Positions 2,981-32,000 of a DNA stretch of 32,000 nucleotides are shown here, in pieces. Source of the DNA: Inquilinus limosus. GTDB lineage: Bacteria; Pseudomonadota; Alphaproteobacteria; DSM-16000; Inquilinaceae. Numbering within the stretch: the stretch's first letter is position 1; each line of letters begins with the position of its first letter. The stretch covers positions 158,241-190,240 of the forward strand of contig NZ_JAHVDK010000007.1 in NCBI RefSeq assembly GCF_051487185.1, given 5' to 3'. The notes beneath the pieces were generated by a model. The model was not told the DNA's origin, did no database searches, and worked only from the letters and a program-made list of their open reading frames with translations. The position numbers were made by a program, and so were the translations under genes.

Positions 2981-3879
2981 TGGCAACGCGCAAGGTCATC
3001 GTTACGGTGGCGCCGACCGGCGGCTTCGCCATGAAGGCGCACAATCCTCATCTGCCGACCCAGCCGGAGGAGATCGCCGAGGACGTGGTGCGCTGCTTCA
3101 ACGCGGGCGCCAGCGTCGCCGCCCTTCATGCGCGCAATGCCGACGACAGCGCGACCTGCAATCCGGAGATCTATCGCCGCATCAACCAACTCATTCGTGG
3201 ACGCTGCGACATCGTCCTCAACAACTCCGGCGGTGGGGGCCTGAACGGCGACATGGCTCGGCCTGTATCCGATGGCTTGTGGGAAGTCGCCTTGGAGGAG
3301 CGCATGAAGGCCGCCGATGGCGGTGCCGAGATGGTGACACTGAACGCTATGACCGTGCTCGCGACCCTTGGTGGACGCGATACCCTGCTCACGGCGTCGC
3401 CGACGCGCTCTCGGGAATTCGCGCAGCGCCTGCGTGATCGCGGGATCAAGCCGGAATGGGAAGCGTTCAGTCCTGCTCACCTCTTGCAGGACATGCGCAC
3501 GCTCATCGACGAGGGCCTCGACGAGCCGCCCTATTTCGTCAATCTCTGCCTCGGCCTCCATCATGTCTTCCAGGGTGCTGTCCCCTACTCTCCGAAGATG
3601 CTCCAGGTGATGGTGGAGTTCCTGCCATCCCAGTCGCTCTTCACGGTCAGCGCGGCGGGAGACGCGCAACTACCCGCGACCGTGCAGATGCTTCTGCTGG
3701 GCGGCCATGTACGGGTCGGCCTCGAGGACAACTTGCACTACCGCCCTGGCGAGCCTGCCACGAACGTTCAACTGGTCGAGCGCATCGTCCGTATCATCCG
3801 CGAGCTCGGTATGGAGCCGGCGACGCCCGCCGAAGCCCGCGAGATGCTAGGCCTGCCGCGCCGGCGGCCGGAGGCGTAA
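2980..3879 (+). CDS. beta-keto acid cleavage enzyme family protein (BKACE/DUF849), paralog 2
   Basis: The in-frame ATG at 2980 shares its A with the kinase TGA stop (2978-2980). Supporting sequence: MATRKVIVTVAPTGG..., PEEIAEDVVRCFNAGASVAALHARN, GGHVRVGLEDNLHY, ATPAEAREMLGL. Confidence 0.85.
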   Translation: MATRKVIVTVAPTGGFAMKAHNPHLPTQPEEIAEDVVRCFNAGASVAALHARNADDSATCNPEIYRRINQLIRGRCDIVLNNSGGGGLNGDMARPVSDGLWEVALEERMKAADGGAEMVTLNAMTVLATLGGRDTLLTASPTRSREFAQRLRDRGIKPEWEAFSPAHLLQDMRTLIDEGLDEPPYFVNLCLGLHHVFQGAVPYSPKMLQVMVEFLPSQSLFTVSAAGDAQLPATVQMLLLGGHVRVGLEDNLHYRPGEPATNVQLVERIVRIIRELGMEPATPAEAREMLGLPRRRPEA

Positions 3880-3881
3880 GC

Positions 3882-4592
3882 ATGCTCGAGCTCTTCCGAA
3901 TGGACGGCGAGGTCGCGATCGTCACCGGTGGGGCGAGCGGGATCGGTGCGGCAGTCGCCTCGGCCTTCATTGACGCCGGCGGCACGGTCGAGATCGCGGA
4001 CATGGCTGGCTCAAGCCCGCTCGACGTGACCGACGAGGCCGCCGTGGAAGGCTTCTTCGCCGATGTGCACCATCGATATGGACGGCTCGACATCCTCGTT
4101 AACAACGCCGGGATAGCCGTCCGCCGACCGACGATGGAGCTCGGTGTTGACGAGTGGAACCGAGTCGTCGCAGTCAACATGACCGCAATGTTCATCTGTG
4201 CCCGCGCGGCCGCCCGATGGATGATGCCGCAAGGCGGCGGACGCATCGTCAACACCGCCTCCATCATGGGTCTCTCCGGCGGCCTCTATCCGAACGTCTC
4301 CTACCAGACCACGAAGGGCGCCATCGTCAATCTCACCCGCGCCCTCTCCGTGGAATGGGCCAAGGTGGGAATACGGGTCAATGCCGTTGCGCCGACCTAT
4401 GTGCGTACGCCGCTTACCCAGGAGCTGCTCGACCAGATGGATATTCTCCAAGCGATCACGGCCGCGACGCCGATGGGGCGCCTCGCCGAAGCGCAGGAAG
4501 TGGCTGCTGCTTTCCTCTATCTCGCAAGCCGGGCCTCAGGGATGGTGACCGGCCATACGCTGCCGGTCGACGGCGGCTTCCTGGCGCGATAA
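3882..4592 (+). CDS. short-chain dehydrogenase/reductase (classical SDR)
   Basis: The ATG lies 2 nt after the BKACE2 stop. Motifs: TGGASGIGAAVA, NNAG, catalytic YQTTK (YxxxK), and a PVDGG tail. Confidence 0.9.
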   Translation: MLELFRMDGEVAIVTGGASGIGAAVASAFIDAGGTVEIADMAGSSPLDVTDEAAVEGFFADVHHRYGRLDILVNNAGIAVRRPTMELGVDEWNRVVAVNMTAMFICARAAARWMMPQGGGRIVNTASIMGLSGGLYPNVSYQTTKGAIVNLTRALSVEWAKVGIRVNAVAPTYVRTPLTQELLDQMDILQAITAATPMGRLAEAQEVAAAFLYLASRASGMVTGHTLPVDGGFLAR

Positions 4593-4630
4593 CGCGCGAT
4601 CCGAGGCGGCCCCAAACCGCCCAAGCAGAG

Positions 4631-5488
4631 ATGCTGAAGATGAAGCTTCTTCGCTACGGCCCTCTAGGGCAAGAAAAACCTGGCTTGCTCGATGAAGATG
4701 GAAGCATCCGTGACCTCTCGGGCGTTCTGGATGATATCAATGGAAACGCAATCACTCCCGAAGGCCTTGCCAGGTTGAAGGAATTGGAAGGGTCGCGTCT
4801 ACCAATCGTATCTGGCTCTCCGCGCTATGGCTGTCCCATCGCGAACGTGGGAAAATTCATCGCCGTCGGGCTCAATTATTCGGATCATGCGACGGAAGCA
4901 AAATTACCGATTCCAGCCGAACCTGTCTTATTTTCCAAAGCGACCTCCTGCATTCAGGGCCCAAACGACGACATAGTCATTCCACGCCGATCGAAGAAGA
5001 CGGATTGGGAGGTCGAGCTTGGCGTGGTGATCGGCACACGTGCAGCCTACGTCAGCAAAGAAAACGCCCTCTCCCATGTAGCGGGTTACGTCGTGGTCAA
5101 TGACGTGTCCGAGCGCGAATACCAGATCGAACGCGGTGGCACCTGGGACAAGGGCAAAGGGTGCGACACGTTCGGTCCGATCGGGCCATGGCTCGTGACT
5201 TCGGATGAGATTGGAGATGTTCAAAAGCTGGAGATGTGGCTGGACGTTAACGGCAACCGCATGCAAGCCGGCTCAACGGCGACTATGATCTTCGATGTAA
5301 AGACAATAATCAGTTATATCTCCGAATTCATGACCCTGATGCCGGGAGATATTGTCACGACTGGCACGCCGCCGGGAGTTGGCATGGGAATTCAGCCTGA
5401 GCCGATCTATCTCAAGGCGGGAGACGTGGTGACACTGGGCATTGAGAAGCTCGGCCAGCAGCGACAAAGATGCCGCGCGTATATGTAG
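4631..5488 (+). CDS. fumarylacetoacetate hydrolase (FAH) family protein (2-keto-4-pentenoate hydratase / diketo-acid hydrolase type)
   Basis: Translation M(LK)MKLLRYGPLGQEKPGLLDEDGSIRDLS..., DWEVELGVVIG, GTPPGVG. The start may instead be the ATG at 4640 (MKLLRY). The DNA is clearly less GC-rich than its neighbours. Confidence 0.85.
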   Translation: MLKMKLLRYGPLGQEKPGLLDEDGSIRDLSGVLDDINGNAITPEGLARLKELEGSRLPIVSGSPRYGCPIANVGKFIAVGLNYSDHATEAKLPIPAEPVLFSKATSCIQGPNDDIVIPRRSKKTDWEVELGVVIGTRAAYVSKENALSHVAGYVVVNDVSEREYQIERGGTWDKGKGCDTFGPIGPWLVTSDEIGDVQKLEMWLDVNGNRMQAGSTATMIFDVKTIISYISEFMTLMPGDIVTTGTPPGVGMGIQPEPIYLKAGDVVTLGIEKLGQQRQRCRAYM

Positions 5489-5649
5489 ATTTCCACGTGC
5501 GTACTTGTCTCTATTGAATGCACTGGGTTTAGCAACAACGCTCATGTGGAAGGAAGAACTCATCAGAACGTTTCATTGAACCCGCAATCCAGTACCTGGA
5601 GAGCCTGTTTCTGGGCTCGGGGCATGCGTCGCGCATCCAAGGCGGCACA

Positions 5650-6552
5650 ATGGATCAACCAGACTTCAAAGCGATCAAGTATGTGGTTGCCGTGGCGGAG
5701 CATTTGAGCTTCCGCCGTGCGGCAGACGCCTTGAGGATTCGTCAGTCGGCTGTCAGCCGGCAGGTCCGGAAGCTGGAAGAGGTGATCGGGGTCGCGCTCT
5801 TCGAGCGCTACTCCGGCGGTCTCCGGCTGACGCATGCAGGACGGACCTTCATTCGCGATGCCCGCTGCATCTTGATGCTACTCGATCAGGCTGTCGGCCG
5901 GGCAGACCGAAACGGGAGAGCAGAAGCTGGCTTGCTGACGCTAGGATTTTTCCCGTCGCTGGTTTCCGGTCCGCTCAAGGAGGCACTGCAGCGATTCCGT
6001 CGCCTTAGTCCCGGAATCTTGATAGAGACCATGGAGGGAAGCCCCGTCGATCAACTCCAATGGCTGCGGGCCCGGCGTATCGACGCTGGCGTGCTGGCCG
6101 GCGGCTACGAGGCATCCGACCTGAAGCAACTCCCGCTTTGGGAGGAGCAGATCTTCGCCGCATTGCCGCAGGACCATGAGCTGGCCGGCGAGGAAACCCT
6201 GAACTGGCAAGACCTCCGACGCGAGCACTGGCTTGTCCGGACCTTCGAGAGCGGTGCCGTCGTCTACAATTTCCTGATCGGCAGGATCGCGGCCGACGGG
6301 CACATCCCAGCCACATCGCTGCACCTCACCTCGCGGGAGAACGTTCTCGGCCTGGTCGGAGCGGGGTATGGCGTCACCATCGTCCCGGAAACCCTGGTTG
6401 GGCTGAACTTTCCCGGCGTTGTGTTCCGCCCGATCACAGGCGAAGGCGCGCTGCTGCCGATCTCGGCGGCCTGGCTCGGCAACAATGACAATCCCGCTCT
6501 GCGTCGCTTTCTCAGTCTGCTTCGCCAGGTCCGGACGCCACCTCCGAGGTAG
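5650..6552 (+). CDS. LysR-family transcriptional regulator
   Basis: 300 aa. It has the N-terminal wHTH YVVAVAEHLSFRRAADALRIRQSAVSRQVRKLEE and a LysR substrate-binding-like C-terminal half. Confidence 0.9.
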   Translation: MDQPDFKAIKYVVAVAEHLSFRRAADALRIRQSAVSRQVRKLEEVIGVALFERYSGGLRLTHAGRTFIRDARCILMLLDQAVGRADRNGRAEAGLLTLGFFPSLVSGPLKEALQRFRRLSPGILIETMEGSPVDQLQWLRARRIDAGVLAGGYEASDLKQLPLWEEQIFAALPQDHELAGEETLNWQDLRREHWLVRTFESGAVVYNFLIGRIAADGHIPATSLHLTSRENVLGLVGAGYGVTIVPETLVGLNFPGVVFRPITGEGALLPISAAWLGNNDNPALRRFLSLLRQVRTPPPR

Positions 6553-6790
6553 TCCGAGTTGGTTGGTCGGCAGCTCGCCGCGACCGCTTCGCCTTCGCGA
6601 ATCCCCGATCCGTCGCCATGAACCGCGCCAGCATCGGCGCAACCAGACGAACGGGCTCAATCGCCTGCCCAGTTTCGCGGCCGAGCAGTTCCCCGTAGGC
6701 GACGAGATCGCGATGCACCCCCGCCGGCAGCTCGACAGTGAGCTTGACCGGCCGGTCGTCGAGGATCGCACCGAGCTTGAGCTTCGTCAT
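6512..6790 (-). CDS. DUF2274 domain protein (conserved last gene of trb operons)
   Basis: The translation MTKLKLGAILDDRPVKLTVELPAGVHRDLVAYGELLGRETGQAIEPVRLVAPMLARFMATDRGF matches what I recall of DUF2274. It sits directly after trbI. Its 3' tail overlaps the LysR 3' end by 41 bp. Confidence 0.8.
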   Translation of the reverse strand: MTKLKLGAILDDRPVKLTVELPAGVHRDLVAYGELLGRETGQAIEPVRLVAPMLARFMATDRGFAKAKRSRRAADQPTRTTSEVASGPGEAD

Positions 6791-6797
6791 CGTATCC

Positions 6798-7943
6798 TCA
6801 CTCCCGGTAGGGCTCGAGCACGAGATCGCGGCTGACCATCACCCGGATCGGGAAGGCCTGCCTGATCCTGATGGTCGGCGGAATGTCGAGATTCCGCCGC
6901 ACGACCTCCTGACCGACGTCGTTGAGGGTGTCGCTGCCGGCGCGCCGCAGCGCCTGCAGAATTTCGCTCTCGTCATTGCCGGCGCCGAGCTCGGTGCCGA
7001 CGCCGAGGATCGAGGACAGCGCCGCCGCGGCGAAGAGCCGGCCCCAATGGTGCTCCACCTCGTCCTCGAGCCCGGCATAGCCTTCCGTGTCCGCGCTGGG
7101 CAGCCGCTCCAGCACGATCGACCTGCCGTTCGGCAGGATGAGCCGGGTCCAGACCTGGAGCACACTGTCCTGGCCGAACGCCACCCGGCTGTCGTAGGTG
7201 CCGACCAGCAGCGACCCCTGTGGGATCAGGAGGAAGCGTCCGGTCGGGCTGTCGTACACGTGCTCCGTCACCCGGGCGATCACCTCACCCGGCCGGTCGG
7301 AGCGCAGGCCGGTGACGAGCGCCGCCGCGATGATGGAGCCGGCCTGCAGCACATAGGGCGACGGCGGATCCTGCAGCCGGTCCGAGCTCAACGTCCGGCG
7401 GTCGGGCGGAGCGTCCAGGAAAGCCTGCTCCCGATCCTGGGCACCATCGAATGCGGAAGCGGTTGCAGATACATCCGATGGCGCCGAGCCCCCTGCTCTC
7501 GCCGACTCCCCGATGCCTCCCTCCCTCTGGCCGGTGCCGACGAACAGCTTGCTGGTCCGCGCCGCCTCCTGCTCCTGGGCGATCCGCTGCAGCAGCGGAT
7601 CGGGGCCAGGCTGCAGCGGCGGGGTCACGGCCTTGCCCTGCTCCTGCGCCCGCAGGATCGGCCGGCCGAGATCCCCGGGGAGCGGTGGCCCCAGCTGCGG
7701 CACGCCGGTGTAGTCCGTCGGCAGTGCCGCCAAGCCATCGGTGGTGGTCTTCGTGTCGGTGCTGTAGAGCTCCTGCTGCGGCTCGGCCCGGCGGCGGCTG
7801 TCAAGCGCCCAGACCAGCGCGCCGAGCACGGCGAGGCCGGCCAGGCCGGCGGCGCCGACCAGCACCTTGCGTGACAGCCGGGTGACCCGCGGCCGCTCGG
7901 GATGCAGGCGCAGCGCCGCCTTGAGCTCGGCCTCGCCGGTCAT
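6798..7943 (-). CDS. trbI: conjugal transfer protein TrbI (VirB10 family)
   Basis: 381 aa. It has an N-terminal TM segment, a Pro-rich linker, and a conserved C-terminal domain (QAGSIIAAALVTGLRSDRPGEVIARV...IRIRQAFPIRVMV). Confidence 0.93.
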   Translation of the reverse strand: MTGEAELKAALRLHPERPRVTRLSRKVLVGAAGLAGLAVLGALVWALDSRRRAEPQQELYSTDTKTTTDGLAALPTDYTGVPQLGPPLPGDLGRPILRAQEQGKAVTPPLQPGPDPLLQRIAQEQEAARTSKLFVGTGQREGGIGESARAGGSAPSDVSATASAFDGAQDREQAFLDAPPDRRTLSSDRLQDPPSPYVLQAGSIIAAALVTGLRSDRPGEVIARVTEHVYDSPTGRFLLIPQGSLLVGTYDSRVAFGQDSVLQVWTRLILPNGRSIVLERLPSADTEGYAGLEDEVEHHWGRLFAAAALSSILGVGTELGAGNDESEILQALRRAGSDTLNDVGQEVVRRNLDIPPTIRIRQAFPIRVMVSRDLVLEPYRE

Positions 7944-8899
7944 CGCGCATCGGTCCGGACGATCCGGACCACCTGCTGGTCCTTCGCGCCGAGCCGCAGC
8001 TCGGCCGCGGCGAAGAGCCGGTCGACGATGTAATAGTTCTGCCGGACACGATAGTTGACGAGCTGGCTGTCGCCCTCGGCGCCGATGACGAAGAGCGGCG
8101 GCATCTCGCCCTGGCCGATGCCGCGCGGGAACTCGATATAGACCTTGGCACCGTCGTCGAAGGCCTGGGCGGGTCGCCAGGGCGGATCGTCGCCCTCGAT
8201 CCGGTAGCGGAAGCGCAGGCGGGTGAGGTCGACGCCGGTCGCAACCGGCGCCGCGGCTTCGGCCTCGGCGTTGCGGCGGCGCAGCGCGATCAGCTCATCC
8301 TCCGGATACTGCCAGGACACTGCCGCCATGTAGGTCGACGGAGTCGAACGCAGCTCGAGCAGATAGGTCCGCCGGTCGGTGTTGATCACGAGGTTGGTGA
8401 CGAGGTCCGGCCGGGTCGGCTTGACGAGGATGTGGACCCGGCGCGTCGTCCCCGCCCCGCTCTCGGTGTCGCCGACGATCCAGCGCACCGTGTCACCGGC
8501 CGCCACCGGCCCCGAGCCGACCAGCTGCTCGCCCGGCTCGAGCGCGATGTCGGTGACCTGCCCGGGCGCCGTGTAGACCTGGTACAGCGCCCCGGCGGAA
8601 TAGGGATAGACCTGCACGGCATTGATGTAGCCGTCGCGGCTCGGCTGCATCCGCGCCGCGGCATTGGCCCGGCTCACCCGCTCCTTCGGATCGGCCGGCT
8701 CCGGCGGCGCCCGGCGGGCGCCGAACAGCGGCTTCAGCTGTCCCGGCAGCGGCAAGGGCTTCGGCAGCTCGACGACCTGGACCGGCTTCGGCGGCTCGGG
8801 CAGCCGCACCGCCTCGACCGGCTCGTCGTAGCGGGTCGAGGGCGGCTTGCTCGAACAGGCGGCGACTGGAAGAAGGGCGAGGACCAGGAGGAGGCGCAT
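7940..8899 (-). CDS. trbG: conjugal transfer protein TrbG (VirB9 family), lipoprotein-type signal
   Basis: This is the internal ATG at 8899 of track ORF 7940..9670. It gives MRLLLVLALLPVAACSS (lipobox), then YQVYTAPGQVTDIALEPGE and RRTYLLELRS. Its start overlaps the trbF stop as TGATG. Confidence 0.92.
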   Translation of the reverse strand: MRLLLVLALLPVAACSSKPPSTRYDEPVEAVRLPEPPKPVQVVELPKPLPLPGQLKPLFGARRAPPEPADPKERVSRANAAARMQPSRDGYINAVQVYPYSAGALYQVYTAPGQVTDIALEPGEQLVGSGPVAAGDTVRWIVGDTESGAGTTRRVHILVKPTRPDLVTNLVINTDRRTYLLELRSTPSTYMAAVSWQYPEDELIALRRRNAEAEAAAPVATGVDLTRLRFRYRIEGDDPPWRPAQAFDDGAKVYIEFPRGIGQGEMPPLFVIGAEGDSQLVNYRVRQNYYIVDRLFAAAELRLGAKDQQVVRIVRTDAR

Positions 8900-9585
8900 C
8901 AGCCGAGCTCCTTCGACCAGTTGATGGCGTTGACATAGATGCCAAGCGGGTTGCGGCGCAGCCGGTCGGCGTCGCGCGGCGGCTCGATCACGATGGTGAG
9001 GATGGCGGTCCAGCGCTCGGTCGCCGCCAGGCTGCCGTTCTCGTAGCGGCGCTCGACCCAGGCGATGCGGAAGCTGTCGTCCGAGGCGCGGATCACGCTC
9101 GACACCTCGACCGCGACCTGCTGGCGGCCGACCTTGCCGAAGGGATCGTTTGCCCTGGCGTAGTCGTTGAGCGCCACGGCGCCGCGGTCGGTCACGAAGT
9201 CGTAGGCGCGCAGCCAGGCCTGCCGCACCACCACGGGATCGGCCGGGAGCCCGCGCACGTCCTCGACGAAGCGGGCGAGATGCCAGGCGATCTGCGGATC
9301 GGTCGGACGGTAGCCGGCCGCGGCCGGCGCCACCGCCTGGGTCTGGCCGAGGCGGTCGACCTCGACCACCCAGGGCACCACGGTGCCGCGCGCCGCCTGC
9401 CACAGGAGCCCGGTGCCGAGGCCGCCAGCGAGCATCAGGCAGCCGAAGGCCATGAGCCGCCAGTTGCGGGCTTGGACCCGGGCCGAGCCAATGCGCTCGT
9501 CCCAGAGCTGCGCCGCCTTCTGGTACGGCGTCTCGGGCTCGGGCGTGCGGCCGTAGCGGACGGAGGAGCGGCGGAACGGGTTCAT
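8899..9585 (-). CDS. trbF: conjugal transfer protein TrbF (VirB8-like)
   Basis: 228 aa. Supporting sequence: MNPFRRSSVRYGRTPEPETPYQKAAQLWDERIG, one TM segment, and a C-terminal NPLGIYV motif. Confidence 0.92.
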   Translation of the reverse strand: MNPFRRSSVRYGRTPEPETPYQKAAQLWDERIGSARVQARNWRLMAFGCLMLAGGLGTGLLWQAARGTVVPWVVEVDRLGQTQAVAPAAAGYRPTDPQIAWHLARFVEDVRGLPADPVVVRQAWLRAYDFVTDRGAVALNDYARANDPFGKVGRQQVAVEVSSVIRASDDSFRIAWVERRYENGSLAATERWTAILTIVIEPPRDADRLRRNPLGIYVNAINWSKELG

Positions 9586-10802
9586 CGATCCTCCTCGGCG
9601 AGCGGCACCGAGGCCGAGCCGCCGCCATGGTCGCTGGAGCGGACGGTGTGGACCGCGGCGGAGACGCCATGCCGGACAGCCTCGCTGTGCTTCAGCCGCT
9701 GCGCCCAGCCCGGCGCCGTGCCGGCCGGTCCGGACGGCTGCGACGGACGGGTCGGCGGCACGGCCGGCGCGCCGCCGCCTGGCGATGCCCCTCCTCCGCC
9801 ACTGCCCAGCGTCCGGAACTTGCGAGCGAGCTCGGCCCTGCCGGCGATCTGCCGCTCGACCGCGAGCGTGCCGGTGAAGCGGCCGCTGGCGGCGCCGAGC
9901 CGGGCCGCAGCCGAGACGGCGCCGGTCGCCGCCATGCCGCCAGCCACGGCGAGGCCGCCCGCGGCGAGCGCGGTGCCGGCCGCGGCGCCGGCGCCGAGCT
10001 GCGGCGCGCCGGAGACGAGACCGGTGGCGATGCCCGGCCCGAACAGCCCGAGGCCGAGCAGCGACAGCGCGGCGAGCACGAGCGCCAGCGCATCCTCCAG
10101 CGTCGGCTGCGCCTCGCCGAAGCCGCGGGTGAACTCGCCGAAGAGGCCGGTGCCGATGCCGACGATGACGGCCAGCACCAAGACCTTCACGCCCGAGGCG
10201 ACGATATTGCCCAGCACCTTCTCGGCCAGGAAGGCGGTCTTGTTGAACAGGCCGAAGGGGATGAGGACGAAGCCGGCCAGCGTCGTGATCTTGAACTCGA
10301 TCAGGGTGACGAAGAGCTGCACCGCCAGCAGGAAGAAGGCGACCAGCACCACCAGCCAGGCGATCAGCAGCACGAAGATCTGGATGAAGTTGTCGAAGAA
10401 GGAGACGAAGCCCATGAGCTGGCCTGCGGCCTCGAGGATCGGCCGCCCCGCGTCGAGCCCGACCCGGGCGAGCCGGCCCGGTTGCAGGAACTCGGCCTGG
10501 CCGATCGACGAGCCCGCGGCCTTGAGGCCGAGGCCCGCGAAGCTCTCGAAGACGATGCGGGCGAGGCCGTTGAAGTTGCCGATCAGGAAGGCGAAGAGGC
10601 CGATGTAGAGCGTCTTGCGGATCAGCCGGGCGAGCACGTCCTCCTCGGCGGCGAGCGCCCAGAACAGGCCGGCGAGCGTGATGTCGATCGCGATTAAGGT
10701 CGAGGACAGGAAGGTGACCTCGCCGCGCAGCAGGCCGAACCCGGAGTCGATGTACCGGGTGAAGACCTCGAGAAAGCGGTCGATGACGCCAATCCCGCCC
10801 AT
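9582..10802 (-). CDS. trbL: conjugal transfer protein TrbL (VirB6 family)
   Basis: 406 aa and polytopic. It starts MGGIGVIDRFLEVFTRYIDSGFGLL and ends in a Gly/Ala-rich tail. It overlaps the trbF start by 4 nt. Confidence 0.92.
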   Translation of the reverse strand: MGGIGVIDRFLEVFTRYIDSGFGLLRGEVTFLSSTLIAIDITLAGLFWALAAEEDVLARLIRKTLYIGLFAFLIGNFNGLARIVFESFAGLGLKAAGSSIGQAEFLQPGRLARVGLDAGRPILEAAGQLMGFVSFFDNFIQIFVLLIAWLVVLVAFFLLAVQLFVTLIEFKITTLAGFVLIPFGLFNKTAFLAEKVLGNIVASGVKVLVLAVIVGIGTGLFGEFTRGFGEAQPTLEDALALVLAALSLLGLGLFGPGIATGLVSGAPQLGAGAAAGTALAAGGLAVAGGMAATGAVSAAARLGAASGRFTGTLAVERQIAGRAELARKFRTLGSGGGGASPGGGAPAVPPTRPSQPSGPAGTAPGWAQRLKHSEAVRHGVSAAVHTVRSSDHGGGSASVPLAEEDR

Positions 10803-10805
10803 GGC

Positions 10806-11078
10806 TCAGCGCTCCCCGCCGCCCGTGCCGAGGAAGCGCTCGCGGACCTTGGCCCAGGCGGCCCGGCAGCCGGGATCGTCGGCCGCGGCGAGGTCGAGCG
10901 ACCGACAGCGGGCGAGCTCGGCCGAGACATCGTCCGTCCGCTCAGGCACGACGCGCGAGACCGGCACCGGCGCCTCAGCCTCGCGATGGGCCGCGATCGC
11001 CGTCGCCAGAAGCGCGGCGCCGAGCAGGGCGAGGGCGGCCGCCCGGAAGATGGTCCGCGGCTCCATGGCGTCACTCAT
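10806..11078 (-). CDS. trbK: putative entry-exclusion protein TrbK-alt
   Basis: 90 aa, located between trbJ and trbL. It has a signal-like hydrophobic N-terminus and the C-terminal block CRSLDLAAADDPGCRAAWAKVRERFLG. The start could instead be the ATG at 11066. Confidence 0.7.
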   Translation of the reverse strand: MSDAMEPRTIFRAAALALLGAALLATAIAAHREAEAPVPVSRVVPERTDDVSAELARCRSLDLAAADDPGCRAAWAKVRERFLGTGGGER

Positions 11079-11802
11079 GGAACATGCTGACGGCCGAGGG
11101 CTGGTAGCCGATGCCCTCGGCCAGGAAGCGCCGGCGCTGCTCCTCGGCCTGCTGCTCGGCCGCGGCCTGGCGAGCCTGCTCCAGAGCCTGCGCCCGGCCC
11201 TGGGCCGCGAGCAGCGCCGTGAGGTCCGCCAGCTGTTTTGTCTGCACGGCCAGCAGCTGGTTGCCGGCCTGGGTCGCCTGCAGCACGCCGACCGCCCCCT
11301 GGCTGGCGTCGACCAGCGTACTCGTCTCCGCCTGGGTCGCCGGCAGCTCGTTGACCACCCCGGCGCCCACGGTGAGCGCGTGCTGGAAGGCCGAGACCGA
11401 ATTCTGCCAGCGCTGGCGGGCGCCCGCGATCAGCTGCTGGTCGCTGAGATCGGATCCGAGATCCCGGTACTGCCGGAAGGCGTCCTCGATCGCCTCGACG
11501 TCATAGGCGATGCGGTCGGCCTGGCGCAGCAGGCCGTGGATCTCGGAGAAGGAGCCCTGGATCTCGCCGAGCACCGAGGTCGGCAGCGAGGCAAGCTGCC
11601 GGGCCTGGTTGATCAGCATCTGCGCCTCGTTCTGCAGGCTCGTGACCTGGTTCTGGATCTGCTCCAGCGCCCGGGCGGCCGAGAGCAGGTTCTCGCTGTA
11701 GTTCCTCGGGTCGAACACGATCCAGGCCGCATCGGACCGGGAGGCCGGCAGCGACAGCAGAGCGCCGACGATCAGCGCGGCGCGAAGGCGATGATGGGTC
11801 AT
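11071..11802 (-). CDS. trbJ: conjugal transfer protein TrbJ (VirB5-like)
   Basis: This is the internal ATG at 11802 of track ORF 11071..12666. It gives MTHHRLRAALIVGALLSLPASRSDAAWIVFDPRNYSENLL (signal peptide plus the conserved N-terminus), followed by a coiled-coil body. Confidence 0.9.
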   Translation of the reverse strand: MTHHRLRAALIVGALLSLPASRSDAAWIVFDPRNYSENLLSAARALEQIQNQVTSLQNEAQMLINQARQLASLPTSVLGEIQGSFSEIHGLLRQADRIAYDVEAIEDAFRQYRDLGSDLSDQQLIAGARQRWQNSVSAFQHALTVGAGVVNELPATQAETSTLVDASQGAVGVLQATQAGNQLLAVQTKQLADLTALLAAQGRAQALEQARQAAAEQQAEEQRRRFLAEGIGYQPSAVSMFHE

Positions 11803-28189: not shown

Positions 28190-29229
28190 GGCGGGCCTCG
28201 ACGGGCAGCGACGGCTGCACTCCGGAGCGCACCATCATCAATGTTAGAGTTTTCTAAGTTAGACTCTAAGTTACGGGCGCCGATCTCGTTGGCAGACCAA
28301 AGACTTAGCTGGGTTCCGTGCGCCTGATGTACCGATAGCGCCGCGCCCGAAGTACCGATACCCGCTGCGCCCGATGTACCGAGTGCAGTCACAGGCTTAT
28401 CCACCGATTCTGTGGATAAGTCGGGGCCTCCGGTGGGTATAACCCATAGCAGGCCGCCCGCCTCGAAAACCAGCCGATAGCCGGGCAGCGGCTGGCGGGC
28501 GGCGATACGGCGGAGGTCGAGGGCGAAGTCGGACAGCCGGGCCAGGCTGCCGGACTTGGCGTGGAGATGGCGGACCTCGAAGGCCCAGCCCGAGGGCTGT
28601 CGGCCGGCATGCTTGCGGGCGACCCGGTAGAGCCAACGCTCGATCCCGCCCGTCAGCCGGAAGTACGCCGGGTCGATGGTCAGCACCAGCGAGCGGTCCA
28701 GCACGCCGCGGTAGAACCAGTCCGGCAGCACGAATTCCATGCCGCGGCAGCGGCCGAAGCCGTCGACCAGCTCCTGCCATTCGCCGATCCAGGAGAACTG
28801 GTGCCGGCGCCAGTTGGGACCCTGGCGGATCGTGGTCAGCACCACGGTCGACTGCAGCCGCTGCAGCGCCGCCTTGAGGAGCCGGTATTGGCGGAAGCCG
28901 GTGTCCCGGCCGGTCGCCCGCAGGATCTGGTACGGCGTGAAGCGCAGGAAGCGCGAGGTGCGGAGGCCATGATCAGCAGCCTCGACGATCTGGGTCGCGG
29001 CCCAGATCAGGATGTCGGCGTCCCAGATGGTCGCCATGCCGTGCTCCGGCACGGCGTAGATCTGCACTTCCGTCTCACCGGCCTGATAGAGGATCGGCCG
29101 GGTGCGCCGGCCCTTGGCCAGCGAGAAGAAGGGCCGCTCCATCAGGTCGCGCTGGTCGCGCGGGCTGACGCCGTCCCCGGGCAGCGCCACGAAAGGATCG
29201 AGTGTTGCCCGCTCGGGGAGACTGGTCAT
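28186..29229 (-). CDS. repA: replication initiator protein A (RPA family)
   Basis: 347 aa. Supporting sequence: RDLMERPFFSLAKGRRTRPILY, ATIWDADILIWAATQI, and ERWLYRVARKHAG. The stop shares ATGA with the parA start. The C-terminal tail is encoded by repeat-rich DNA. Confidence 0.88.
   Translation of the reverse strand: MTSLPERATLDPFVALPGDGVSPRDQRDLMERPFFSLAKGRRTRPILYQAGETEVQIYAVPEHGMATIWDADILIWAATQIVEAADHGLRTSRFLRFTPYQILRATGRDTGFRQYRLLKAALQRLQSTVVLTTIRQGPNWRRHQFSWIGEWQELVDGFGRCRGMEFVLPDWFYRGVLDRSLVLTIDPAYFRLTGGIERWLYRVARKHAGRQPSGWAFEVRHLHAKSGSLARLSDFALDLRRIAARQPLPGYRLVFEAGGLLWVIPTGGPDLSTESVDKPVTALGTSGAAGIGTSGAALSVHQAHGTQLSLWSANEIGARNLESNLENSNIDDGALRSAAVAARRGPP
28253..28273. repeat. tandem TCTAAGTTA repeats (12-bp period) in an AT-rich island
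   Basis: TCTAAGTTA occurs at 28253-28261 and 28265-28273, and TTAGA/TCTAA inverted arms lie at 28244-28257. This is the only AT-rich patch in the area and sits just upstream of the parA start. Confidence 0.6.
28326..28385. repeat. three iteron-like direct repeats (GA[T/A]GTACCGA, 23-24 bp period)
   Basis: GTACCGA occurs at 28329-28335, 28352-28358 and 28376-28382, each with the shared flank (C)CGA[T/A]. Confidence 0.6.
28396..28420. promoter_or_regulatory. inverted pair of DnaA-box-like sequences
   Basis: The sequence is CTTATCCAC-N7-GTGGATAAG. The + strand reads TTATCCACC (28397-28405, 8/9 to the consensus) and the - strand reads TTATCCACA (28411-28419, 9/9 to the TTATCCACA consensus). Confidence 0.55.
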
Positions 29230-29522
29230 CGTCCCCTCCCCGGCTCGGGGCGATCGGCGTATTGCGGTGCCACCGCGGCGTGGCGCTTGGCCGGCAGCAC
29301 GGTGTCGGTGCCGGGATCCGAGGTAGAGCGCTTGGCGCCGCGGTCGGCCCAGGCCTGAAGGTCCTCGATGGTGTAGACGACGCGGCCGCCGATCTTGCGG
29401 TATCGCGGGCCGGTGCCGTAGGTGCGGTGCTTCTCCAGAGTTCTGCCGGACAGGCCGAGGAAACGCGCGGCCTCGGGCGTCCGGAGAAAGCGCGGCGGCA
29501 TTCCGGCCAGAGGGTCAGGCAT
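29226..29522 (-). CDS. helix-turn-helix DNA-binding protein, excisionase/MerR-like (possible recombination directionality factor)
   Basis: The ATG at 29522 gives MPDPLAGMPPRFLRTPEAARFLGLSGRTLEKHRTYGTGPRYRKIGGRVVYTIEDLQAWA, an HTH_17-type pattern. It is the first gene of an ATGA-coupled chain. The ATG at 29501 is an alternative start. Confidence 0.72.
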   Translation of the reverse strand: MPDPLAGMPPRFLRTPEAARFLGLSGRTLEKHRTYGTGPRYRKIGGRVVYTIEDLQAWADRGAKRSTSDPGTDTVLPAKRHAAVAPQYADRPEPGRGR

Positions 29523-29619
29523 GGTCGGGCTCCGTGATCTTCGGGAAGGCCGCCGGACAGGGCGGCCGGTCGAAGGCCACGGTGGCGAAGCGCCGCCGCG
29601 CGGGCGGATGGCGAAGACC

Positions 29620-29642
29620 GGGGTGGCGACAATCGCCACCCC
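29620..29642 (-). terminator. GC-rich hairpin after the DUF2285 gene (terminator-like, no clear U-tract)
   Basis: GGGGTGGCGA-caa-TCGCCACCCC is a perfect 10-bp stem. It lies 9 nt downstream of the stop at 29651. Confidence 0.4.
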
Positions 29643-29650
29643 GGCTGCTT

Positions 29651-30193
29651 TCAGCGTCGGGGCCCGAGCAGCCGGCGATAGCCGCCGCGCATCAGGGCCA
29701 GGCCGGAGCGGACGAGACGGATGGTCCGGTCCCGGATCGACGAGGTCTTCCAGCTTTCCTCGCAGACGCGGTCGGCGCCGAACAGCACTTCGGCGATCTC
29801 GCGATAGCTCGCGCCCTCCGACCGTCCGTCGAGGGCGCGGAGCGACGCGACAAGGCGCGCCCGTCGCTGCGTCGGCAGGATCGGCGGAGCCTGTGGTCGT
29901 CCCTCGCGAAGCAGACGCCAGAAGCGAAGCGTCGCTTCGGCTCGAAACGGTGCTGTCACGTCCAGCGAGAGGGCCGCATCAACGGTGGTGCCGCGGGCCG
30001 GAGGCCCCGGCAGCCAGAGGCGATGCGTGCTGCGGCCATCGCGCAGCAGCAGATGCAGGCCATCCGCGCTCCGGCGTTCGGCAACGGCGCCGAACCAGGC
30101 GTCGGGATCGAAGACGATGGCGTCGGTCGGAGGATCAGGGAGGGAGGGGGTCAGAATCACCGTGCGGACGTGCAGCTCGGGCAGCCAGAACAC
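29651..30193 (-). CDS. DUF2285 domain regulator, C-terminal portion of a split gene (frame is open up to 30235)
   Basis: The C-terminal block is SLRALDGRSEGASYREIAEVLFG...GGYRRLL. The track start is a GTG with no obvious RBS. The upstream in-frame sequence reads PFLADPRRRASEQPVFWLPEL. Confidence 0.75.
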   Translation of the reverse strand: MFWLPELHVRTVILTPSLPDPPTDAIVFDPDAWFGAVAERRSADGLHLLLRDGRSTHRLWLPGPPARGTTVDAALSLDVTAPFRAEATLRFWRLLREGRPQAPPILPTQRRARLVASLRALDGRSEGASYREIAEVLFGADRVCEESWKTSSIRDRTIRLVRSGLALMRGGYRRLLGPRR

Positions 30194-30416
30194 AGGCTGC
30201 TCGGAGGCACGCCGGCGCGGATCCGCCAGAAAAGGTCAGCCCCCAGCGCCGGGCGAGGTACGCAACCTCGGCCTCGGGGCCGAGAGCCTCCTTCCCCTGC
30301 GCGCGCTCGTAGTCGCTCCGATACTCCGGATACCGCCGCAACGCCTCCCAGGCGAAGTCCGGGGCATCCAGATTGGAGTCGTAGGCGGCCCGTGACCGCC
30401 AGTCGCCATGTGGCAT
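30135..30416 (-). CDS. DUF6499-like N-terminal portion of the split DUF2285 regulator
   Basis: The ATG at 30416 follows GAGGGAG and gives MPHGDWRSRAAYDSNLDAPDFAWEALRRYPEYRSDY...ARRWGLTF. After that the frame yields an Ala/Arg-rich tail that looks non-native. Confidence 0.7.
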   Translation of the reverse strand: MPHGDWRSRAAYDSNLDAPDFAWEALRRYPEYRSDYERAQGKEALGPEAEVAYLARRWGLTFSGGSAPACLRAACVLAARAARPHGDSDPLPP

Positions 30417-30498
30417 GACGTCTCCCTCGGTCCGGCATCATCAACGATGCACCGGCCGCATCTTGGGAGAAGTTTCCTGGCTGAGAAGTCCTCGCAAC

Positions 30499-30514
30499 GG
30501 CATCACGTGATGCC
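30499..30514. promoter_or_regulatory. perfect 16-bp palindrome GGCATCACGTGATGCC upstream of the split regulator gene
   Basis: Read directly from the sequence. It lies 83-98 bp upstream of the ATG at 30416. A looser copy, GGCATCA-N5-GATGCACC, sits at 30434-30453. Confidence 0.5.
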
Positions 30515-30608
30515 GATTGCGTGCACAGCCGACTCCGCGCCTCGCCTCAAAGCTGCAAGTGCGACGATGTGACTCTCCGGAAATCCGGTTCTCCGGATCG
30601 GCGGCGGG

Positions 30609-30863
30609 TCAGCCTTTGCGCAGGAGCTCGCGATAACCTTGGGCGCTGAGCCAGCGGGCCCGGGCGAGATGGCTCTCATGGCATTTGCGGACGCGCTCCG
30701 GATCCCGCTCGGGATCGAGGCCGAGCACAATCCTGGCGACCTCGCGCCAGTCTGCCGCCTCTTCCGCCGCGTCGAGCAGCCGGAGATAATCCACCAGATG
30801 CTCCCGGTCGTAATCGGTCAGCTCGTCGCCGGTCGGCGCCGTATCGGCAAACGAAGGAGCCAC
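30609..30863 (-). CDS. stand-alone DUF2285 domain protein (QseM-like candidate antiactivator)
   Basis: 84 aa with a GTG start after GAGGGGG. LVDYLRLLDAAEEAADWREVARIVLGLDP...AQGYRELL parallels the C-terminal domain of the neighbouring DUF2285 regulator. Confidence 0.7.
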   Translation of the reverse strand: MAPSFADTAPTGDELTDYDREHLVDYLRLLDAAEEAADWREVARIVLGLDPERDPERVRKCHESHLARARWLSAQGYRELLRKG

Positions 30864-30990
30864 TCGTCCCTACCCCCTCATCGGGTCCGCAGTGTCAGCC
30901 GCCGGACAATATGCCCTACAATTAGCGGGGCTGTCACGGCCGTAGCAGATCTGGCTTGCCGGTCGTCGATCAGCGAAGCCGGCTAATGTA

Positions 30991-31015
30991 GACTATAGTC
31001 CGTGGTTCGATAGTC
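30991..31015. promoter_or_regulatory. candidate operator: palindrome GACTATAGTC plus an extra ATAGTC half-site
   Basis: A perfect 10-bp palindrome lies at 30991-31000 and GATAGTC at 31009-31015. Both are 23-47 bp upstream of the XRE gene start. Confidence 0.4.
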
Positions 31016-31037
31016 AACAGACGGCTTGTCTGCATGC

Positions 31038-31262
31038 ATGGACATGCGCAAGCTGGTGGCCCGCAACCTCAAGAAATTCCGCATCGACGCGGACCTGTCT
31101 CAGGAGGAGCTGGCAGAGCAGTCCGGAGTCGATCGCACGTACATCAGTGGGATCGAGCGCGGTGTCCGCAATCCAACAATCGTCATGCTTTGGCAAATCG
31201 CGTCCGTATTGAAGATCGAGCCTTGGCAACTGATCCATCCGGACTCGACGGCAGACGAGTGA
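31038..31262 (+). CDS. XRE-family helix-turn-helix repressor (QseC-like candidate)
   Basis: The sequence (MD)MRKLVARNLKKFRIDADLSQEELAEQSGVDRTYISGIERGVRNPTIVMLWQIASVLKIEP is an HTH_3 pattern. The track ORF starts at TTG 31026; ATGs lie at 31038 and 31044. Confidence 0.85.
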   Translation: MDMRKLVARNLKKFRIDADLSQEELAEQSGVDRTYISGIERGVRNPTIVMLWQIASVLKIEPWQLIHPDSTADE

Positions 31263-31273
31263 AATGAGAAGAC

Positions 31274-31301
31274 CCGCCGATCCGCGAATGCGGATCGGCG
31301 G
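31274..31301. terminator. strong hairpin between the convergent XRE and DUF932 genes
   Basis: CCGCCGATCCGC-gaat-GCGGATCGGCGG is a perfect 12-bp stem. The flanks are AAAA on the + side and a T-containing stretch on the - side. Confidence 0.5.
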
Positions 31302-31336
31302 AAAATAGCAGATCCTGGAAGGCGTAGAGACGCAAG

Positions 31337-31366
31337 GCCGTGCAGCCGGCAATCCAGCTGCACGGC
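31337..31366 (-). terminator. hairpin directly after the DUF932 stop
   Basis: GCCGTGCAGC-N10-GCTGCACGGC is a perfect 10-bp stem. It lies 10 nt downstream of the stop at 31377. There is no clear U-tract. Confidence 0.35.
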
Positions 31367-31376
31367 TCCGTGATGA

Positions 31377-32000
31377 TCAGGCGGCGCGCTCCAGCAGCGC
31401 CCGGGCCTTGCCCTCGAGCTCGAGCCGGCCGTCCTGGTGCGGCTTGGTCCGCGCCAGCGCCGTGATCCCCTGCACGAAATCGAACAGGCTCTCGGGTGGA
31501 TGCCCCTCCTCGTTCAGCACGGTCGCGATGATCCGTGCCGTCTCCGGCTTGGAGAAGCCCCGCTTGCGCAGGAAGGCCTGTCGGTCCTCCTCGGTCCGGG
31601 CGACGATCCGCTCCCGTGCCGCTTTGATCCCGGCGACGAAGGGGGCCGGGCTGGAGTTGGCGAAGCTGGCCAGGGCCGGCGCCGCCTCATGGGCGAAGCG
31701 CTGCGCCGCGAACTTCGAATGTCGGATGGTGATCTCCTCAAAGCCTTCCACGCCCCAAAGGTTGCGATTCTGGCAGACGGCGCGGAGATAGAACGAGGCG
31801 ATGCCGAGGGTCTTCGACCCGACTTCCGAGTTCCAGGCGTAGAAACCACGGAAGTAGAGGTCCGGCTCGCCGTTCGGCAGCCTGCCCACCTCGATCGGGT
31901 GTGTGTCGTCGACCAGGAACAGGAACACGTCGCGGTCGCTGGCGTAGAGGGTGGTCGTCTCCGCCGTCACGTCGACGAACGGGTTGTGGGTCATGGTCGC
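31377..32000 (-). CDS. DUF932 domain protein, C-terminal part (gene continues past the window edge)
   Basis: Supporting sequence: LYASDRDVFLFLVDD, FYAWNSEVGSKTLGIASFYLRAVCQNRNLWG, and ITIRHSKFA. Six more in-frame bases, with no stop, follow the track ATG at 31994 to the window edge. DUF932 proteins are longer than this. Confidence 0.8.
   Translation of the reverse strand, partial: ATMTHNPFVDVTAETTTLYASDRDVFLFLVDDTHPIEVGRLPNGEPDLYFRGFYAWNSEVGSKTLGIASFYLRAVCQNRNLWGVEGFEEITIRHSKFAAQRFAHEAAPALASFANSSPAPFVAGIKAARERIVARTEEDRQAFLRKRGFSKPETARIIATVLNEEGHPPESLFDFVQGITALARTKPHQDGRLELEGKARALLERAA

Follow-up and report, generated by a model that had tools for sequence, protein, structure and literature searches.

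The window analysed here is a stretch of 32,000 nucleotides of the Inquilinus limosus genome (contig NZ_JAHVDK010000007.1, positions 158,241 to 190,240 of the forward strand), and it holds a complete transfer backbone of the ICEMlSym/Tn4371 type of integrative conjugative element (ICE). At 30609-31262 in window numbering, which is used throughout, lie two small divergent genes, one encoding a stand-alone DUF2285 protein of 84 amino acids (aa) and the other an XRE-type helix-turn-helix protein; homologues of fseA and rdfS follow on the DUF2285 side. An earlier note on this DNA had likened the pair to QseC and QseM of ICEMlSymR7A from Mesorhizobium japonicum R7A. The genes of the locus, and the site between the last two of them, are:

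30609..30863, minus strand: qseM homologue, putative stand-alone DUF2285 antiactivator of 84 aa (PF10074; match to 7uqt).
31038..31262, plus strand: XRE or controller (C-protein) gene of 74 aa, proposed functional analogue of qseC (HTH_3; match to C-protein structures).
29651..30416, minus strand: fseA homologue in two frames, with DUF6499 at 30135-30416 (PF20109, E 4e-16) and DUF2285 at 29651-30193 (PF10074, E 2.3e-33).
29226..29639, minus strand: rdfS homologue, an excisionase-type winged helix-turn-helix protein (HTH_17; match to 8dgl) with ATG 29522 as likely start, first of the string rdfS-repA-parA-...-traF.
29610..29637, minus strand: FseA-box-like inverted hexamers GGCGAT-N16-TTCGCC between fseA and rdfS, read from the sequence.

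The 84-aa open reading frame starts with GTG, preceded by an AGGGA-type ribosome-binding site. As proposed earlier, the protein consists of a DUF2285 domain only: PF10074 (DUF2285, now RovC_DNA-bd) is the sole Pfam family matched, with 34.9 bits against a cut-off of 26.4. NCBIfam has no named family for this protein and none for fseA, and a DUF6499-type (AWEFLRRN-type) motif was sought upstream of the gene in every frame and not found. The comparison with QseM that the note had suggested was carried out for sequence and fold. Among all PDB sequences the nuclear magnetic resonance (NMR) structure of QseM, 7uqt, is the only real match (E 2.8e-20, residues 6-81), and 38 of 76 residues (50%) are identical to QseM of ICEMlSymR7A with the residue numbering in register. 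An AlphaFold 2 model (predicted local distance difference test score, pLDDT, 83.6) shows helices at 17-34, 39-46, 55-75 and 77-83, which coincide with helices H1 (17-34), H2 (39-46) and H3 (55-71) of the NMR structure and with the predicted H4; Foldseek returned QseM as the only significant PDB match of the model (E <0.001), with a TM-score of 0.65. Alanine substitution weakens QseM at the core residues Y18, D19, Y26, L29, L30, H65 and L66 and at the FseA-binding residues R28, D31, R68 and W71 (Jowsey et al. 2023, PMC10359603), and a GY motif precedes H4 (PMC10359603). All of these residues, together with G76 and Y77, are kept in the 84-aa protein at the same numbering, and in an alignment of 30 homologues the functionally tested residues and the GY motif are invariant or at least 90% conserved. 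By homology and residue conservation, the 84-aa protein is thus a QseM homologue of the stand-alone DUF2285 type. The two DUF2285 copies of the window are recognisably paralogous (38% identity over 50 residues), and no other pair of DUF2285 copies occurs in the whole genome.

The two reading frames matched by PF20109 and PF10074 are located directly downstream of the qseM homologue, which agrees with the split DUF2285 activator described there before. They contain a +1 frameshift site, GGGGG-CUGACC-UUU_U, at 30230-30244; for the frameshift in fseA, a UUUC slippery site with an upstream G-rich tract is known (PMC4755241). The gene carries an AWEALRRY motif, and the frameshift junction reads RWGLTF as compared to QWGLLF in R7A. 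Domain content, junction and slippery site identify the neighbour of qseM as an FseA-type activator made by +1 frameshifting. When the locus is aligned to that of R7A (L053), the antiactivator is 50% identical and its presumed target FseA is less conserved, with 29% identity in the DUF6499 part and 44% over the last 72 residues. The gene behind fseA matches the RdfS structure 8dgl (E 2.6e-10). Between the two genes, GGCGAT-N16-TTCGCC has the architecture of the published FseA box, which consists of two inverted hexamers 15-16 bp apart (PMC10359603), and GGCGAA/T-N16-TTCGCC recurs in related loci. A further motif, CTTCGCCACCGTGG, is present after this repeat (29575-29637, minus strand) and recurs upstream of the rdfS homologues in most related loci. 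A hairpin with 12-bp arms, CCGGGGTGGCGA/TCGCCACCCCGG, overlaps the distal hexamer of the repeat directly after the fseA stop codon.

The divergent XRE gene encodes 78 aa if read from TTG 31026 or 74 aa if read from ATG 31038, so that both lengths considered earlier (74-78 aa) were found; all divergent relatives keep the opening ATG-GAY-AT, which makes the ATG the likely start. The protein matches HTH_3 (E 1.9e-16), and its best PDB matches are 3vk0, C.AhdI, C.BclI, QseC (9xz9) and C.Esp1396I with E values of 5e-11 to 3e-9. The QseC structure (E 1.5e-9) thus appears amid controller proteins of restriction-modification (RM) systems. The recognition stretch DRTYISGIER..RN is identical to that of C.Esp1396I. 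When the PDB alignment was mapped onto the contact residues named by McGeehan et al. 2008 (PMC2504287), 11 of the 12 DNA, dimer and tetramer contacts proved to be conserved (R17, Q24, E25, R35, T36, Y37, S39, R43, R46, N47 and T49), the exception being S52. The R7A-type qseC used for comparison is that of a Mesorhizobium genome in which QseM shows 100% identity to the 76 aligned residues of 7uqt. The encoded QseC differs from the XRE protein at the R35/T36 positions, and in its recognition residues the XRE protein departs from the C.PvuII-like motif 4 group (Sorokin 2009) that orthology to QseC would imply; its operator belongs with those of C.Esp1396I and C.AhdI (motif 2). Judged by these matches, the XRE protein is a member of the controller family that also contains QseC, and it is nearer to the RM controllers than to QseC, in a different controller subfamily. 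The proposed resemblance to QseC-QseM therefore holds as far as the QseM homology and the C-protein type of the XRE protein are concerned, but the XRE protein is only 34% identical to QseC and does not belong to the same subfamily.

The spacer between the divergent genes (30864-31037) measures 174 bp, close to the earlier estimate of about 170 bp. The following sites were recognised in it and behind the XRE gene:

30986..31020: 35-bp double C-box, putative operator (25/35 match to the C.Esp1396I operator).
30991-31000: perfect palindrome GACTATAGTC, core of the distal box OL (about 30986-31002).
31006-31015: TTCGATAGTC, core of the proximal box OR (about 31003-31020), imperfect and weaker.
31013..31018, minus strand: TTGACT, a -35-like hexamer inside OR, candidate operator-embedded qseM promoter read from the sequence.
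30908..30937, minus strand: GTGACA-N18-CATATT, promoter-like site (sigma-70-like match) adjoining qseM and outside the swappable cassette described below.
31273..31302: GC-rich, terminator-like hairpin with a 13-bp stem between the convergent XRE and DUF932 genes, at the cassette edge.

The palindrome at 30991-31000 and an ATAGTC at 31010-31015 had been named before as operator candidates, the latter as a third half-site. Both are present, but they turn out to be the cores of a single double C-box, in which ATAGTC is the good half of the weaker OR. The native C.Esp1396I operator, reassembled from two printed oligonucleotides (PMC2504287), reads ATGTGACTTATAGTCCGTGTGATTATAGTCAACAT and the window at 30986-31020 reads ATGTAGACTATAGTCCGTGGTTCGATAGTCAACAG; the two are identical at 25 of 35 positions in an ungapped alignment, and the landmark positions T2G3, GT at the centre and C33A34 are all kept. 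The next best match in the window reaches 18/35 (64,000 positions), and the binomial expectation for a match as good as the one observed is 7e-4 to 3e-2 per window. The 10-bp palindrome alone is within chance, as 17 of 100 window shuffles matched it with at most one mismatch; the whole 35-bp site, unlike the palindrome, is beyond chance. The site has an overall dyad, TGTAGACTAT/ATAGTCAACA, and OL occurs once in the 7.39-Mb genome.

The 35-bp site ends 18 bp before the ATG of the XRE gene, and between operator and ATG no Shine-Dalgarno (SD) sequence is found. The same arrangement exists in all divergent relatives, each with a double box of its own at 18-19 bp from an ATG that lacks an SD sequence, and in the R7A-type locus, where GGAACTATCGTTC-TAG-GAACGATCGTTCC is located 19-21 bp from the qseC ATG, again with a perfect palindrome as distal and an imperfect box as proximal element. 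The short distance and the missing SD sequence suggest that the XRE mRNA is leaderless, as published work describes for the mRNAs of QseC and a number of C proteins. A CTTG that seemed to keep its position ahead of the XRE start was discarded once positions were counted.

Two sites on the minus strand are candidates for transcription of qseM. TTGACT falls inside OR, and the -35 element of the R7A promoter PqseM is likewise located in OR (PMC8789080); when the two operators are aligned by eye from the XRE start codon, TTGACT takes the position of GGAACT in the R7A-type operator. Its -10 partner is ambiguous and could be TAGTCT at N16 or TACATT at N21. The second site, GTGACA-N18-CATATT, is the sole sigma-70-like match in 30380-31400. 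There may thus be two qseM promoters of which only one is under the operator; we consider direct repression of qseM by the XRE protein likely.

Relatives of the 84-aa protein are encoded at 41 loci across the Alphaproteobacteria, or 42 if the window is included, the closest being those of three Inquilinus genomes with 89-92% identity. A loss of gene order in related elements, which would have spoken against the assignment, was not observed: of the 41 loci, 38 have qseM, fseA, rdfS and repA in succession on a single strand, and in 39 of 42 a small XRE gene is located directly upstream of qseM, either divergent (13 loci) or co-directional (26 loci). At 55% identity the XRE proteins next to qseM make up four clusters, and in each of these a distinct palindromic site lies just ahead of the XRE start, which fits the at least six C-protein families that the literature describes in the role of qseC. 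The XRE type of the window is rare, with only two close clusters (96% and 78% identity) before identity drops to 57%. Four more distant XRE relatives whose context was inspected belong to other mobile elements, in which they diverge from small, unrelated genes.

The commonest arrangement is found in 24 loci (L007-L019, L021, L025-L026, L028-L030, L032-L033, L035, L037 and L042), all with one XRE cluster (start MITARQSRAAR) in which the XRE gene is upstream of and co-directional with qseM. These genes have a normal SD sequence, and one palindrome only, CGACTATTATAGTCG, precedes the XRE start by about 35-55 bp, a wiring unlike that of divergent qseC/qseM. Ten of these entries, L011-L019 and L042, from assemblies of Paracoccus, Gemmobacter, Bosea, Erythrobacter and Maricaulis, have the same match coordinates and identities for QseM, FseA and XRE, which points to a recently spread element.

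Within Inquilinus, homology breakpoints delimit an exchangeable unit made up of the XRE gene together with its operator:

30940..31273: exchangeable cassette comprising the XRE gene and its operator.

The DNA of the window is about 90% homologous to that of the Inquilinus loci L004 and L002, but this homology ends at 30939-30941, and with L004 it resumes at 31274, at the hairpin after the XRE gene. L003 carries the same cassette as the window (XRE 95% identical, operator 35/35) next to 52 bp that have diverged. L004 carries another divergent C protein of 44% identity with the operator TACACACTATAAGTTTATCAACTATAGTATGTA, and L002 a co-directional XRE gene whose product is 41% identical; DUF932 is 98% identical in L003 and L004. 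Near-identical Inquilinus ICE backbones, whose QseM proteins are 90-92% identical, thus harbor three distinct XRE cassettes, two divergent and one co-directional, with sharp breakpoints.

The spacer between qseM and fseA contains a second kind of conserved site:

30446..30515: two dyads upstream of fseA, GATGCGGCCGGTGCATC at 30446-30462 and CGGCATCACGTGATGCCG at 30498-30515, candidate site of an input regulator.

The dyad at 30446-30462 has the form GATGC-N7-GCATC and the one at 30498-30515 is an 18-bp palindrome with swapped arms. Arm pairs of the type GATG..CATC or CATC..GATG are present in 18 of 30 distinct related qseM-fseA spacers (shuffled spacers: 1.2 on average, 4 at most), and about 13 of those 18 spacers have the exact form GATGC-N7-GCATC, which in most loci precedes the fseA start by 104-117 nt. 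Conservation of the arms extends to their sequence, beyond mere complementarity, and the dyad is found with every XRE cluster. An assignment as FseA box, by which fseA would be autoregulated, was rejected since sequence and spacing differ from GGCGAT-N16-TTCGCC. We regard GATGC-N7-GCATC as a candidate site for an input regulator of fseA that would take the place of TraR.

We propose, with a probability of about 0.78, that the locus is the top-level transfer switch of an ICE with ICEMlSymR7A/Tn4371 backbone and that it is of the QseC/QseM type, for which a model exists in the literature (PMC8789080, PMC5812530, PMC10359603, PMC4755241). This reading is built on the homology of the four proteins, the conserved QseM residues, the match to a crystallised C-protein operator, the DNA-contact residues and the gene order, all of which are present in the sequence. 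DNA binding by the XRE protein, the sign of its regulation of qseM, leaderless translation and bistability would follow from the likeness to the known systems. Dimers of the XRE protein would bind the double C-box that precedes the gene's own start codon, where translation is probably leaderless. Occupation of the strong distal OL would stimulate the XRE promoter, and at higher XRE concentration cooperative filling of the weak OR would shut this promoter as well as the divergent operator-embedded promoter reading into qseM. The acidic 84-aa DUF2285 protein would be the QseM-type antiactivator of FseA, which is expected to be made only after a rare +1 frameshift. Free FseA would then bind GGCGAT-N16-TTCGCC and activate rdfS together with the genes that follow, so that the element would be excised and transferred.

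Several observations weigh against this scheme. The operator-embedded promoter has no canonical -10 element at 17 bp from TTGACT, and the best consensus promoter for qseM is located about 48-52 bp beyond the operator, outside the exchangeable cassette. GTGACA and CAWWTT are kept in all four Inquilinus elements, whatever the XRE cassette, its distance or its orientation; with the best promoter conserved outside the cassette, part of qseM transcription may escape the XRE protein. No terminator was found between qseM and fseA, so these genes may be co-transcribed, a wiring unlike that in R7A. In addition, FseA of the window is only 29-44% identical to R7A FseA. Part of this evidence would be explained if the XRE protein merely autoregulated a portable cassette while qseM was transcribed mainly and constitutively from its own GTGACA-N18-CATATT, without a coupled bistable switch. 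The cassette boundaries at 30940 and 31273 indeed exclude this promoter, the promoter-like block stays with qseM across three XRE cassettes of which one is co-directional, the distance between operator and promoter varies from about 48-52 bp in the window to 16 bp in L004, and the divergence of more distant XRE relatives from unrelated genes also agrees with such an autonomous unit. We nevertheless consider this explanation unlikely. Although it has been replaced repeatedly, an XRE gene adjoins the qseM homologue in 39 of 42 loci, and this persistence argues for selection on the linkage; moreover, TTGACT is on the qseM strand inside OR, where the -35 element of R7A PqseM is reported, and deletion of qseC derepresses qseM in R7A (PMC8789080). 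A variant that we consider less likely than not sees the controller as a plug-in cassette, with qseM retaining a conserved promoter of its own: swaps of RM-type controller cassettes would re-wire the transfer decision through an outward promoter borne on the cassette or through interference on qseM, rather than through one fixed overlapping-promoter design, and in elements that lack quorum sensing the input to fseA would then be a factor that binds GATGC-N7-GCATC.

The roles of the two proteins could also be seen differently. That the 84-aa protein is a DNA-binding regulator and not a protein-binding antiactivator is suggested by the name of PF10074, which designates a DNA-binding domain (RovC_DNA-bd), and by the DUF2285 fold, a helix-turn-helix variant (PMC10359603). 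Such a function is nevertheless very improbable, as the protein is acidic (net charge -5, pI 5.1) as opposed to the DUF2285 part of the neighbouring FseA (net charge +9, pI 11.4), is 50% identical to QseM, which has no basic surface and is reported as unlikely to bind DNA, and has kept the FseA-binding residues. The comparison of basic surfaces was made here as a bulk charge count; the contrast between acidic QseM and the basic FseA DUF2285 domain has already been described in the literature. As to the XRE protein, its closest solved relatives and its operator are of the RM-controller type, which could mean that it controls a restriction-modification system and is unconnected with transfer. 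No methyltransferase or endonuclease gene is found beside it, however, the flanking genes being qseM and the convergent DUF932 gene, and ICEs are on record in which a C-protein gene adjoins qseM (PMC8789080). An RM role is rejected because of the missing RM genes and is in our view scarcely credible.

Under the preferred reading as a QseC/QseM-type switch, the closest parallel is ICEMlSymR7A (Ramsay 2013, 2015, 2022; Jowsey 2023). In both cases a C-protein-type XRE gene diverges from a DUF2285-only antiactivator gene, a dual operator with a distal and a proximal box precedes an XRE start that lacks an SD sequence (18-21 bp), the activator is a +1-frameshifted DUF6499-DUF2285 protein, and an RdfS homologue is located behind an inverted-hexamer box. 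The order XRE, small DUF2285 and split activator, which the earlier note compared with qseC-qseM-fseA, is shared as regards adjacency but not orientation: in the R7A-type locus traI2-msi172-msi171 (fseA) converges on qseM, whereas in the window both genes share a strand, with qseM upstream. The R7A-type locus also has a second controller gene, qseC2, after qseC, which the window lacks. Further differences are that rdfS directly follows fseA in the window, that its locus has no traR/traI genes, and that an additional conserved promoter-like site adjoins qseM. The predicted boxes also differ, being of the GACTATAGTC type for the XRE protein of the window and GAACGATCGTTC for R7A QseC.

The likeness to C.Esp1396I concerns the recognition helix, the 11/12 contact residues and the 25/35 OL-OR operator with its TG...GT...CA landmarks; there too the distal box is the better palindrome. 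C.Esp1396I works by concentration-dependent activation followed by repression. The centre of OL is one base shorter in the window (GACT-AT-AGTC compared with GACT-TAT-AGTC in the C.Esp1396I operator), and the Esp1396I transcript has a 27-nt leader, unlike the predicted XRE transcript with its start codon 18 bp from the operator and no SD sequence. In the window, furthermore, RM genes are absent beside the XRE gene and the divergent partner is a putative antiactivator of conjugative transfer. A C-protein-type gene also adjoins the conjugation antiactivator TraM on Agrobacterium and Rhizobium plasmids (PMC8789080), but TraM is unrelated to DUF2285 and targets TraR, which is not found here.

Published work already describes the qseC/qseM/fseA/rdfS module as widespread among proteobacterial ICEs; it comes with several families of C protein and in many cases lacks quorum sensing. 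The locus is therefore best described as a genuine but unremarkable instance of the QseC/QseM switch, a known device that keeps a conjugative element silent in most cells, with a controller and an operator of RM type. What it adds is a concrete operator prediction for this element. The Inquilinus elements provide a natural series with one backbone and three controller cassettes, which is suited to asking how controller identity sets transfer frequency, and the dyad conserved ahead of fseA offers a clue to the transfer trigger where TraR is absent.

The remainder of the window fits an element of this kind. On one side DUF932 is followed by the XRE gene, and the minus strand carries qseM, fseA, the rdfS homologue and genes for RepA, ParA, an RHH protein, DUF2840, TraF (S26 peptidase), a lytic transglycosylase, a relaxase (DUF3363), TraG and CopG. 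A cargo insert with LacI, DapA-family and MFS genes sits between CopG and the trb genes, which comprise trbB, trbE, trbL, a CagX/TrbG-type gene and trbI. The contig also carries a tyrosine integrase gene, some 25 kb to the left of the window. The earlier observation that traR/traI are not visible and that the input to the switch may differ stands as far as the genes are concerned: no quorum-sensing genes were met in the 11.6 kb scanned right of the window, no LuxI-type gene (PF00765) was matched in the genome, with the control genomes likewise giving no match, and the single LuxR-type gene is on another contig. Such a state is no special feature of this element, as QseM and FseA are documented on many ICEs without recognisable quorum-sensing genes (PMC4755241). 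Right of the window (contig positions 190241-210240, at 3320-11606 of that piece), the minus strand carries a run of genes, among them HATPase_c_3, weak radical-SAM-like, SNF2 helicase and ParB_N-like genes, that may be a defence-type cargo cluster.

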